Assembly: GCA_947501605.1 (NCBI GenBank)
Contig: CANMWZ010000016.1
Coordinates: 1 to 64,000 of the forward strand
Origin: Planctomycetota bacterium
Lineage (GTDB): Bacteria; Planctomycetota; UBA1135; UBA2386
Direction of reading: 5' to 3'
DNA length: 64,000 bases
Position numbers and translations under genes: made by a program. Shown here piece by piece: positions 35,694 through 38,796 of this stretch; the stretch's first letter is position 1, and every line of letters begins with the position of its first letter. Under the pieces are notes generated by a model. The model was not told where the DNA came from. It made no database searches and saw nothing but the letters and a program-made list of their open reading frames with translations.

Positions 35694-35729
35694 AACCGCC
35701 GCGGCTGCTCGAGGCAGCACGCGGCGGTT
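35694..35729 (-). terminator. GC-rich hairpin closing the actin-like operon
   Basis: AACCGCCGCG / CGCGGCGGTT 10-bp inverted repeat 30 nt after the stop codon; weak U-tract. Confidence 0.5.
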
Positions 35730-35758: not shown

Positions 35759-36805
35759 TCAGGACTCGCCGATGGCCGCGGCCACCAGGCAGCCCTTCGC
35801 CACCGCAGTCAGTGCCTCGTCGCTGCGGAAGATGCGCCCAACCGGGATCGGGAACGCGATCTTCGCGAACTCCTCGCGGAACACTTCAATGAACCCGCCC
35901 ACCAGTGACGTGCCGCCAGCACATGCGATGTCGATTGGCTGCTGGAAGCTCGGCATGTTCCTGCCGGATTCGAACCGTGCCTTGATGTTCGTCAATACGT
36001 AGCTGATGAGGCTGCGGTAGTAGATCGAGACCGCTTCTTCCTCGCGGCTCTTCGGATCGCGAATATCGATGCCGCGTTCCTTGATGTAGGCCGCCTTGCT
36101 CCGCGGAACACCGAGGACGTGCGCCACGTTCTTGTCGATCCAGTCGCCGCCGCGGGCAACCGAGAACGACAGACAGGGGATCGACTTGTACGAAATGCAG
36201 GCGTTGGCCATGCCGCCGCCAAAGCTCAACCCGATACCGGTGAAATCGCTCTCCGCCAGTTCGGCGAAGATGACTGCATGAGCCTCGTTTATTGCATGGG
36301 CGGTGTAGCCCATCTTGTTGATCATGCTCTCGAAGAGGCCCTGGTGGTAGACAACGTTGTTGTCGACGTCGAGCGAAGGGGCCGGCACGCAGAAATAGCA
36401 GTTCTCGCCGGCCTGACGCGGCTCGCCGAGAATCTTGCTGATGATCAGCTTCATCATCGGCAGTGCATCAACCTCGTTCGGGCTGACGAGGCCATCTTGC
36501 ATCGGACGACGCGTCTCACGACCGAACACGTTCGCAAGTTCGAAGGCAGCCTCCCCGATGACGACCAACTTGCCGTTGTGCACTACGTAGGGCACCTTCA
36601 GCTTGGTCAGCATGTTCTTGCTGTAGACGTCGCTCGGGATGTCGAGGAACGCGTTGCGTTCCACGGTCACCGTGATGCCGCCTTCGTCATTCTGAACGGC
36701 CGCCGCGAGATTCGCGGTGCCGACGTCGAGGCCCTTGCCGAGCGCGACTTCCGTGTCGGCGCTATGATCGGTGGCGCGCAGGTTCTTGTTTTGATTGTCA
36801 GTCAT
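35759..36805 (-). CDS. Actin-fold ATPase, volactin-like (not MreB, FtsA or DnaK)
   Basis: Phosphate-1 GLDVGTAN, connect-1 INEAHAV, phosphate-2 GLSFGGGMAN, RGGDWID, adenosine ACAGGTS and connect-2 AVAKGCL; AGGAAG RBS. Confidence 0.88.
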   Translation of the reverse strand: MTDNQNKNLRATDHSADTEVALGKGLDVGTANLAAAVQNDEGGITVTVERNAFLDIPSDVYSKNMLTKLKVPYVVHNGKLVVIGEAAFELANVFGRETRRPMQDGLVSPNEVDALPMMKLIISKILGEPRQAGENCYFCVPAPSLDVDNNVVYHQGLFESMINKMGYTAHAINEAHAVIFAELAESDFTGIGLSFGGGMANACISYKSIPCLSFSVARGGDWIDKNVAHVLGVPRSKAAYIKERGIDIRDPKSREEEAVSIYYRSLISYVLTNIKARFESGRNMPSFQQPIDIACAGGTSLVGGFIEVFREEFAKIAFPIPVGRIFRSDEALTAVAKGCLVAAAIGES

Positions 36806-36840
36806 GGTCGTGTGTCTTCCTGATCGTCCCTGCGGCTGGA

Positions 36841-37512
36841 TCAACCGCCGCCCTTGAGTTTCTTCAGGCGCTCCAAGTTGGCGGCGATCCCGCCGCCGAC
36901 CTTCTTCTTGACCTGGATGTTGTCCATGTTGGACTCGAGGTCCTTGCCTGTGTCCTTGAACAGCCCGTCGAACTTGATGTCCTCGCCTTCGACGGCCGCG
37001 CTGATGCCCATTTTCTTGCCGAGTTTCTCCAGCCGGTCGTTGAGGGACCCGGCCAGTTTCTCGATGGCTGCAGAGATGTCTGGCGAACCACCAACCGCCT
37101 GCAGCGTGGTGGAGCCGCTCTGCAGAGTCGCCGGAGCTTGACCCGCGGTTGCCGAGGATCCCTGTGCTGAGGATCGACGCGCGACCTCAAGCTCATTGGT
37201 CAGGCGCTCGATCTCCGCGTCGCGAGTTTGGAGTGCGTCCTGCAGCTCCGCGAGCTTGCCGAGCTCGTCCTCGCGTTCGCGCATCAGCGAACGGAACTCG
37301 TCGCGACTGCGCGCGACCAGACGGTCCGCATCTTCTTTCGGGACGAGGCCCGACGCATCGATCGCGGAATGCACGGCTGCATGGATCATCGCCGCGACGT
37401 GCTCGGCCTTGATCAGACGCACTTTCTTGCGGCCTTCGCTAGCCAGCTGCTCGAGCGTCGCCGTGCGCGATCGCGCCGAGAGTGCGTCCTTTACGTCCTT
37501 GACGGTTTCCAT
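36841..37512 (-). CDS. Coiled-coil protein with amphipathic C-terminal tail, upstream partner of the actin-like gene
   Basis: Heptads REREDELGKLAELQDALQTRDAEIERLTNELE, low-complexity linker, tail ESNMDNIQVKKKVGGGIAANLERLKKLKGGG. Confidence 0.8.
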   Translation of the reverse strand: METVKDVKDALSARSRTATLEQLASEGRKKVRLIKAEHVAAMIHAAVHSAIDASGLVPKEDADRLVARSRDEFRSLMREREDELGKLAELQDALQTRDAEIERLTNELEVARRSSAQGSSATAGQAPATLQSGSTTLQAVGGSPDISAAIEKLAGSLNDRLEKLGKKMGISAAVEGEDIKFDGLFKDTGKDLESNMDNIQVKKKVGGGIAANLERLKKLKGGG

Positions 37513-37550
37513 GCAGTCTTCCGTACGGTGACCGATTGCGGTCACGGCTC

Positions 37551-37578
37551 CTTTCGGAAGGCCTGCAGGAAGACTTGA
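37551..37578 (-). promoter_or_regulatory. Sigma28-like promoter TCAAG-N15-TCCGAAAG
   Basis: Same -35 box and spacing as the other sites, 38 nt upstream of ATG 37512; -10 box is more degenerate. Confidence 0.5.
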
Positions 37579-37786
37579 GCGCCGCAGGGATCGGCAGGTG
37601 CTCACGGAACCGCCCAGCACGGTTGCCGGGCGCTCGAAGGGGGCACTGCGGCAAGACCCGGCGACCGCCCCCTCGCAACCTGCTGAGCTGGACGAGCGCC
37701 GCGCTGCAGTCCGTGCTGTCGTGCTCTACGTGCCGGACGCCAACTCGCCGGTCATGACCAATCCCAACAGCGAGGACCGGAGTGGC

Positions 37787-38284
37787 TCAGAACGGGATGT
37801 CGCCGTAGTCCACTTCCCCTCCCTCACTGGCGCCTTCACCACCACGGCGAGCGCCACCACCACTACTACCACCACCACCACCACCTGCAGGGCGACGTGC
37901 CGCACCGCCGCCACTGGCGCCACCACCGCCGCTAGCGCCACCTTCGCCGGCTCCACGCGGTGCTCCGACGAACTGGAAGTTGTCGATGACGACCTCGAGC
38001 TTGTTTTTCTTCTGCCCGTCCTGACCCTCCCAGGTCGAGTACTCAAGTCGCCCCTCGACGAACAGAGGGCTCCCCTTGGCGACGTACTGGCTGAGCACTT
38101 CGGCCTGTCGGCCGAACGCGGTCAGGTCGACGAAACATGTCGACTCCTTTTGCTCGCCGTTCTGCGTCCACTTGCGATTGATCGCCATCCCTAGTTTGGC
38201 GATCTGCATGCCGCCTTGCGTCGTTCGCATTTCGACGTCGCGCGTGAGATTTCCCATCAGGATGACTTTGTTGAAGTTGGCCAT
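37787..38284 (-). CDS. ssb: Single-stranded DNA-binding protein
   Basis: NKVILMGNLTRDVE OB fold, Gly-rich linker, DIPF tail. Confidence 0.97.
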   Translation of the reverse strand: MANFNKVILMGNLTRDVEMRTTQGGMQIAKLGMAINRKWTQNGEQKESTCFVDLTAFGRQAEVLSQYVAKGSPLFVEGRLEYSTWEGQDGQKKNKLEVVIDNFQFVGAPRGAGEGGASGGGGASGGGAARRPAGGGGGGSSGGGARRGGEGASEGGEVDYGDIPF

Positions 38285-38451: not shown

Positions 38452-38796
38452 ATGAGCACTCCCGCTAGAGAACGCCGCCGTGCGCCACGCGCGATCGCCG
38501 ACTTCCCGATCCAACTGACCCAAGGCCCGGAGGGCGCGGAAGGCCGCTTGAAGGACTTGTCGGCGATCGGCCTCAGCTGCACAACCGGAGCAGATGTTCC
38601 GGAGTTCACCAAGCTAGGAATCGACCTACAACTCCCTGGGCAGAGCCGCCGGCACAGCATCCAGGGCGCAGTCGTTCGCAGCGAGGCATCGCGAACGGAG
38701 AAGGGCAAGTTCGAGATCGCGATCTACTTCACCGAGATCGAGGCGGCGACCAAGCTGGCAATCGGCGAATACGTGAGCGGCGGCGAGCCAGCCTGA
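38452..38796 (+). CDS. Stand-alone PilZ domain protein (c-di-GMP receptor)
   Basis: RRRAPR (RxxxR) and DLSAIG (DxSxxG) motifs. Confidence 0.85.
   Translation: MSTPARERRRAPRAIADFPIQLTQGPEGAEGRLKDLSAIGLSCTTGADVPEFTKLGIDLQLPGQSRRHSIQGAVVRSEASRTEKGKFEIAIYFTEIEAATKLAIGEYVSGGEPA

Follow-up and report, generated by a model that had tools for sequence, protein, structure and literature searches.

A coiled-coil protein encoded upstream of a planctomycete volactin-family actin, a candidate tethering or end-binding adaptor

In a 64,000-nucleotide stretch of planctomycete DNA, analysed as a whole and referred to here as the window, the gene for a coiled-coil protein (P0001) directly precedes the gene for a volactin-family actin-like protein (P0002). 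We are inclined to see P0001 as a tethering or end-binding adaptor of this neighbouring actin. Binding of the actin by the tail of P0001, with the tethering and depolymerising readings taken together, is probable, as suggested by the linkage of the two genes and the likeness of the tail to those of other volactin partners. A search of the volactin, saltatorellin, planctomycete and phage-actin literature found no published description of the partner, and no paper on planctomycete volactin-family genes was found.

The two-gene unit and its actin

The features of the unit, all on the minus strand, are as follows.

35694..35729 (-), strong hairpin downstream of the actin gene, without a U-tract, -29 kcal/mol
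35759..36805 (-), gene for the volactin-family actin-like protein P0002, 348 aa (PF25216, E 1.5e-81)
36806..36840 (-), spacer between both genes, 35 nt
36841..37512 (-), partner gene P0001, 223 aa (ATG at 37512, TGA at 36841)
36847..36972 (-), volactin-linked tail, aa 181-222, LF..ESN..I.VK...GGI..NL.RLKKLK
36853..36888 (-), amphipathic terminal helix of the tail, aa 209-220
37012..37080 (-), second conserved helix, aa 145-167, kept within the order
37081..37143 (-), disordered Ala/Gly/Ser linker, aa 124-144, unconserved, pLDDT <50 at 129-139
37144..37338 (-), long helix or coiled coil, aa 59-123, length highly variable across homologs
37264..37512 (-), N-domain, aa 1-83, common to a paralog upstream of a MamK-like actin
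37528..37545 (-), 5' leader hairpin with a 7-bp stem, folding at -9.5 kcal/mol
37553..37579 (-), promoter-like motif CTCAAG-N17-CGAA, recognised by upstream conservation

A preliminary description of this DNA had placed P0001 first in a two-gene unit with a 35-nt spacer before the actin gene, and both the reading frames and the spacer bear this out. The extent it gave for the partner (36841..37578) starts correctly, but the reading frame stops at 37512 and position 37578 takes in the promoter. That promoter is real by conservation, though a sigma-70 scan found no promoter sites at the locus: CTCAAG-N~17-CGA(A/T) occurs upstream of 24 of 47 partner genes, as against 1.2% of random 200-nt windows, with 24 of 31 genes carrying it within the organism's own order and 0 of 16 outside. 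The 5' hairpin described earlier is also present. Its sequence is kept in the closest relatives only, and at two other loci (L004, L005) a hairpin of other sequence was seen by eye at the 5' leader position. The hairpin proposed to close the unit does fold strongly, but it lacks a U-tract and was not called by a terminator scan. Contigs from freshwater RNA libraries extend over the two genes and, in three of four runs, across the spacer between them, which fits co-transcription; such contigs cannot prove a single transcript, and DNA carry-over is possible.

The conserved motif resembles sigma-28 (FliA/WhiG) promoters. Two FliA_WhiG genes over cut-off are present in the genome, and the CTCAAG-N-CGA motif has 33 matches there. 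Among the 18 sites with a scanned downstream gene, five lead into motility or signalling genes, seven into unrelated families and six into genes of no family. The genes led by the motif include those for a small GTPase (MglA-like) with Roadblock, a pilin, two T2SSE ATPases, and HDOD and HD proteins (motility and signalling sites at L342-L345 and L347, on contigs C7, C20, C17, C14 and C5 of the genome). The motif may mark a sigma-28-type regulon, a lead only, as the five sites of 18 come with no chance level, and its place beside the GTPase/Roadblock, pilin and T2SSE genes hints at a role for the pair in motility or polarity.

The pair is adjoined by ssb and prmC (assigned by Pfam), which are chromosomal neighbours. 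The SSB encoded beside the unit (window positions 37787-38284, minus strand) has a long Gly-rich tail, and a stand-alone PilZ protein is encoded at 38452-38796 on the plus strand.

This setting bears on whether P0001 could serve a segregation system as a DNA-binding adaptor like ParR or AlpA. The order of adaptor and actin genes and the terminal helix do resemble ParMR, similar tails occur in large phages, and the N-domain has several conserved basic residues. However, no iteron-like array was found between 35500 and 38500, where the only multi-copy short-spaced direct repeat lies in the Gly-rich tail of ssb; no DNA-binding family was matched in Pfam or NCBIfam; the neighbours are chromosomal, and the haloarchaeal counterpart of P0001 is a membrane protein. 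The earlier argument that a lack of iterons speaks against plasmid-type segregation stands, and we give a segregation adaptor very little credence. By the tests run, P0001 does not appear to belong to the ParR family itself, there being neither a family match nor an iterated-repeat centromere.

By Pfam, P0002 is a member of the volactin family: it matches Volactin (PF25216) with 274.8 bits (cut-off 35) over profile positions 3-321 of 321. It is 39-41% identical to haloarchaeal homologs, and its nearest solved relatives are the actin-like ATPase 5ljw and MreB. The phosphate-2 motif reads S194-F-G-G-G and connect-1 reads N-E174-A, with S194, G196, G198 and E174 invariant in 53 actin rows. Compared by motif description alone, both changes are also those of Mad28 of deep-branching magnetotactic bacteria, which is described as having an SxGxG phosphate-2 motif (Ser for Asp) and an xExx connect-1 motif, as forming filaments, and as contacting the coiled-coil protein Mad25 in a two-hybrid assay (PMC10653835, PMC12713370, PMC12748827).

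The genome holds three actins, namely P0002, a MamK-like actin and MreB; the saltatorellin preprint, in its own account, counts two in its strains (bioRxiv 10.1101/817700). That P0002 might itself be saltatorellin was ruled out by its terminus, AAIGES, where the genome's own MamK-like actin ends FWEKLK, and by the 22% identity of the two over 148 aa. Tubulin or FtsZ gave no match in this 91%-complete genome, which does not prove absence. In a quick search tree, the planctomycete, haloarchaeal, phage and second planctomycete volactins form separate branches (support 98, 99, 86 and 100), and each of these four branches has its own kind of upstream partner.

Linkage and distribution of partner and actin

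P0001 has 369 homologs at E<=0.001, and those bearing names are all 'hypothetical' proteins and all from Planctomycetota. It was matched in 33 of 41 related genomes, and the actin gene directly follows that of the partner in all 20 relative loci listed. In two families of the same order, f9 and f10, the partner was found in 0 of 4 genomes and the actin in 0 of 11. Across a phylum sample of 301 genomes PF25216 was over its cut-off in 113 and the N-domain profile matched in 127; this profile takes in 848 clusters at 50% identity. Conserved linkage, which the preliminary description had named as a check on its proposal, is thus found in every listed relative locus and accompanied by phylum-wide occurrence.

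Places were compared among the matches listed, which are 150 of 215 for the N-domain and 139 above 100 bits for the actin. On this basis, 77 of the 139 listed volactin places have an N-domain within 6 kb upstream and 62 have no listed N-domain upstream. Loci were also taken in for the remaining places of the N-domain and for 24 of the 62 actin places without a listed one.

Several variations on the arrangement were seen. In family f60 the partner is unlinked from the actin; 13 genomes hold both, and the tail of the partner is retained. Volactin-type actins of this family (L154, L157-L160) carry acidic N-terminal extensions of about 150-600 aa, which gave no evidence of a fusion of partner and actin, as by eye they have neither the N-domain nor the tail. 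Volactins of family f13 have unrelated neighbours, and the N-domain was found in 0 of its 16 genomes. These very divergent volactin-like genes (L150, L151, L170, L172, L173), about 24% identical to P0002, are coupled to upstream proteins of about 600-700 aa with signal-like N-termini, one of them with an SLBB domain. At three loci (L062, L063, L065) volactin-type actin genes stand in tandem pairs behind a single partner gene.

Broken linkage in f60 and some other genomes, and the occurrence of some N-domain proteins with no actin nearby, count in favour of a reading in which P0001 is a coiled-coil filament or scaffold in its own right and is only co-regulated with the actin. We regard this as very unlikely, as a look-alike tail beside archaeal and phage volactins and the sorting of tails by actin type, both described below, would be unexpected if the two proteins made no contact.

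Architecture of the partner and an N-domain shared between two actins

P0001 belongs to no Pfam or NCBIfam family and gave sub-threshold coiled-coil matches only. Its AlphaFold model, from a 52-row alignment (mean pLDDT 76.6), has short helices over residues 2-54, one long helix at 59-123 and further helices at 145-167 and 209-220, with low confidence at 129-139. This reproduces the layout of N-domain, coiled coil, linker and tail that had been drawn from the sequence beforehand. A fold search with the whole model returned generic coiled coils (best Z 7.1, rmsd 1.8, 66 residues aligned), the only kind of match to the long helix, and one with the N-domain model (pLDDT 67) gave no clear match (best Z 6.4, rmsd 6.2, 64 aligned). 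Neither search supports a new fold for P0001 or its N-domain. In the ESM Atlas the N-terminal part reached a best feature score of 0.83, a lead only, and a search with the tail gave no usable match.

The C-terminal end of P0001 is IAANLERLKKLKGGG. The amphipathic tail first described is present there, but the conserved block, about residues 145-222, exceeds the 12 residues originally quoted. In the 52 rows, F185 is kept in 49, E193 in 51, N195 in all and L213 in 50, and the set F185, E193, N195, K202, G208, I209, L213, L216 and L219 in 41-52, phylum-wide. WH2 domains consist of a helix followed by an LKKT-type motif, and the LKKL at 216-219 recalls these; with no Pfam WH2 match at E<=1 this was taken as a resemblance only, and P0001 was not accepted as a WH2 protein. 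An equation with MamJ, described as having a highly acidic domain (PMC10653835, PMC12713370, PMC12748827), was likewise rejected, as P0001 has no acidic domain or repeat and no family match.

The weak second matches of P0001 are a paralog family with a common N-domain and coiled coil and another tail. One such paralog is encoded on contig C10 of the same genome, flanked by the genes for a P-loop ATPase and the MamK-like actin. This three-gene unit of ATPase, paralog and MamK-like actin (L072:6240-8922, that is G000:C10:70239-72921) recurs in the same order in L037-L041. Its ATPase has sub-threshold to marginal ParA, MipZ and AAA_31 matches, and it looks like a tyrosine-kinase domain. The C10 actin is probably saltatorellin, because its FWEKLK end (FWEQLK in a relative) matches YWEQLK, the C-terminus specified by the reverse primer for saltatorellin (bioRxiv 10.1101/817700). 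Saltatorellin of Saltatorellus ferox is MamK-like, and its probable ortholog is thus preceded by an N-domain paralog of P0001.

Tails sort with the type of actin. The 136 distinct N-domain proteins comprise 55 encoded ahead of a volactin, 45 encoded ahead of a MamK-like actin and 36 that have no adjacent actin or lie at a locus edge. The volactin-linked group comprises 54 with the V-tail and one unscored, with no S-tail, and the MamK-linked group 35 with the S-tail and 10 with another, with no V-tail, so that crossovers number 0 in 100. These counts take in training rows (held-out rows gave 11/12 and 29/39), and the sorting amounts essentially to two clades and not to 100 independent events. 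P0001 looks modular from these comparisons, and because one N-domain serves two distant actins with two tails, the pattern suggests that specificity for the actin resides in the tail of the partner.

Neither tail nor an adjacent actin was present in 14 of the 136 proteins. At L082, L087, L089, L091, L105, L113 and L138, N-domain proteins of up to 1,000 aa in some cases have other tails and no adjacent actin, and they may be further partner classes.

The tail in archaea and phages and its proposed role

Haloarchaeal volactins have a gene for a DUF7139 membrane protein directly upstream at 64 of 80 loci (by BLAST; several of the 16 misses are short contigs), and these partners match DUF7139 (PF23600) with 124-163 bits. 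Their sequences show the motif RSSGVD..V.GLKGLKGG and, after it, another helix of similar kind; a further amphipathic helix, separate from both, stands at the terminus. VolA (HVO_2015) and HVO_2016 of Haloferax volcanii resemble the planctomycete pair in the PF25216 actin, the partner directly upstream and, apparently, a look-alike tail motif, but HVO_2016 is a DUF7139 membrane protein whereas P0001 is a soluble protein built from a coiled coil and an N-domain of unrelated kind. A CdpA-like or DUF7139 identity for P0001 was rejected, no PF23600 match being found at E<=1. HVO_2016, which is CdpA-like, is noted as adjoining volA (PMC12126565), and the name HVO_2016 was found only in that paper and its preprint. 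In H. volcanii the filaments of volactin are reported to be dynamic and to attach to the membrane at the tips, with the binding factors given as unknown, and volactin appears essential in Haloferax (PMC10869688). In Halogeometricum (L174:10455-12963) rdfA and an SMC-related gene, which the volactin paper presents as shape genes (PMC10869688), are found within a few kb of the volactin locus.

Viral relatives of the actin numbered 301 in IMG/VR. Volactin-family actins are common on viral contigs, many of which are over 100 kb, often with a partner of about 210 aa directly upstream (L177, L179-L258). At the phage loci, 51 of 81 upstream reading frames, picked by their [FY]IP mark, end in GLDDAA.AL[KR]AL[RK]KK.

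The planctomycete, haloarchaeal and phage tail profiles align in register over a shared amphipathic motif of about 22 residues. Against shuffled maxima of 13.9 and 18.9 (60 shuffles each), the planctomycete and haloarchaeal profiles matched with 44% probability (E 2e-4, score 24.9), planctomycete and phage with 47% (score 21.8), and haloarchaeal and phage with 84% (score 30.3); the planctomycete tail matched the tail of the saltatorellin partner with 0.6% (score 11.4). A 22-column matrix made from haloarchaea only placed P0001 second of 25,499 reading frames in the genome and the paralog 11,254th, ranks flattered by a background of mostly non-coding frames. This window of columns was chosen after the alignment had been seen; hence all 83 haloarchaeal windows were scanned, and only five, all over the motif, rank P0001 under 200. 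In turn, with a planctomycete matrix the true partner took first rank at 62 of the 64 haloarchaeal loci and at 42 of the 51 phage loci.

Other comparisons gave lower values. With the planctomycete tail HMM, two haloarchaeal partners scored no more than 5.4 and 3.5 bits, and none of the 81 phage upstream reading frames reached 10 bits. A phage-only matrix ranks P0001 993rd, and only 8 of 51 phage partners lay above the 99th percentile. The membrane protein encoded upstream came first at only five of 12 other archaeal loci, with scores of at most 4.6. Judged from these sequence comparisons, the link of the tail appears good for haloarchaea, moderate for phages and weak for the remaining groups, and convergence of the tail motifs is possible.

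In other archaea of the haloarchaeal phylum (L362-L373) a membrane protein gene stands directly upstream of volactin, and its product has two repeats that finish in a helix resembling VD.ASKIL+.ME. The upstream partner in the second planctomycete volactin clade (L161-L169) has a different N-domain, starting MWIVKN, which resembles that of the phage partners (profile probability 77%). Its tail was not accepted as the P0001 tail (4%, score 16.1, with a shuffled maximum of 15.1).

A different use for the tail would be as a membrane-targeting helix, with P0001 a coiled-coil scaffold on the membrane and any contact with actin made through another part. The helix at 209-220 would suit this, as it is amphipathic with a net charge of +3 and a hydrophobic moment of 0.49 (family median 0.43). 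Yet an aromatic residue occurs in the tail helix in only 2 of 52 rows, and the polar E193 and N195 are nearly invariant. The haloarchaeal partners already have four membrane helices and the separate terminal helix, which is more amphipathic than the motif (median 0.58 vs 0.40), and the haloarchaeal motif is not basic. It is also the N-domain, and not the tail, that is common to the partners of two very different actins. Membrane targeting by the tail seems to us quite unlikely.

The tail accompanies volactin-type actins although the N-terminal modules that carry it are unrelated, and this supports, together with linkage, the earlier suggestion of an actin-binding tail on a scaffold; the accompanying term 'nucleator' gains no specific support. 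Parallels are provided by ParR with ParM and arcadin-2 with crenactin, in which a gene likewise lies beside that of an actin-like protein and encodes a C-terminal helix behind a variable linker. The ParR helix binds the groove of ParM, and arcadin-2 binds the hydrophobic groove of crenactin and depolymerises it, according to the account in PMC5173319. Groove binding has been shown for those proteins, whereas for P0001 it is proposed by analogy, with no sequence likeness and no centromere. P0001 most likely works, by this analogy, as a C-terminal-helix binder of the ParR or arcadin-2 type.

In the mechanism that we propose, the last 40 or so residues of P0001 would bind P0002, with the tail helix most likely seated between subdomains IA and IIA, in the groove used by ParR and arcadin-2. 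The coiled coil would form dimers or oligomers and so present several tails on flexible linkers, and such a multivalent P0001 could capture or stabilise filament ends. The N-domain may dock the complex on a landmark common to both actin systems, or on itself. In haloarchaea the same tail, on a four-helix membrane protein, would pin the tips of volactin filaments to the membrane.

The tail might instead bind the actin and sequester monomers or depolymerise filaments, as arcadin-2 does with crenactin. The evidence from linkage and from the tail fits a depolymeriser equally, and the plan of arcadin-2 is alike, with its small conserved C-terminal helix, unconserved linker and gene beside that of the actin (PMC5173319). 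Even so, a tail found on a membrane protein in haloarchaea, twice over there, and on a long coiled coil here would be better suited to an anchor or a multivalent binder, and we consider a depolymeriser unlikely.

Beyond the adaptor role proposed for P0001, a wider picture can be put forward tentatively, at rather less than even confidence. The volactin-binding tail would be an interchangeable module of bacteria, archaea and large phages, carried on at least three anchors, for which the candidates are the planctomycete N-domain with its coiled coil, the archaeal DUF7139, and the small domain of phages and the second planctomycete clade. In planctomycetes the N-domain would serve as a docking module for two unrelated actins, of volactin and saltatorellin type, wiring both to one cellular landmark in cells in which no FtsZ was found; this system may belong to a motility regulon of the sigma-28 type.

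The pair of partner and actin is a candidate answer to how volactin-type filaments are held in place, and the tail offers a residue-level prediction that could be tested in the Haloferax genetic model through HVO_2016. The Planctomycetota are noted for unusual cell shapes and modes of division, and an N-domain common there to the partners of two actins suggests a cytoskeleton of several actins served by modular adaptors.
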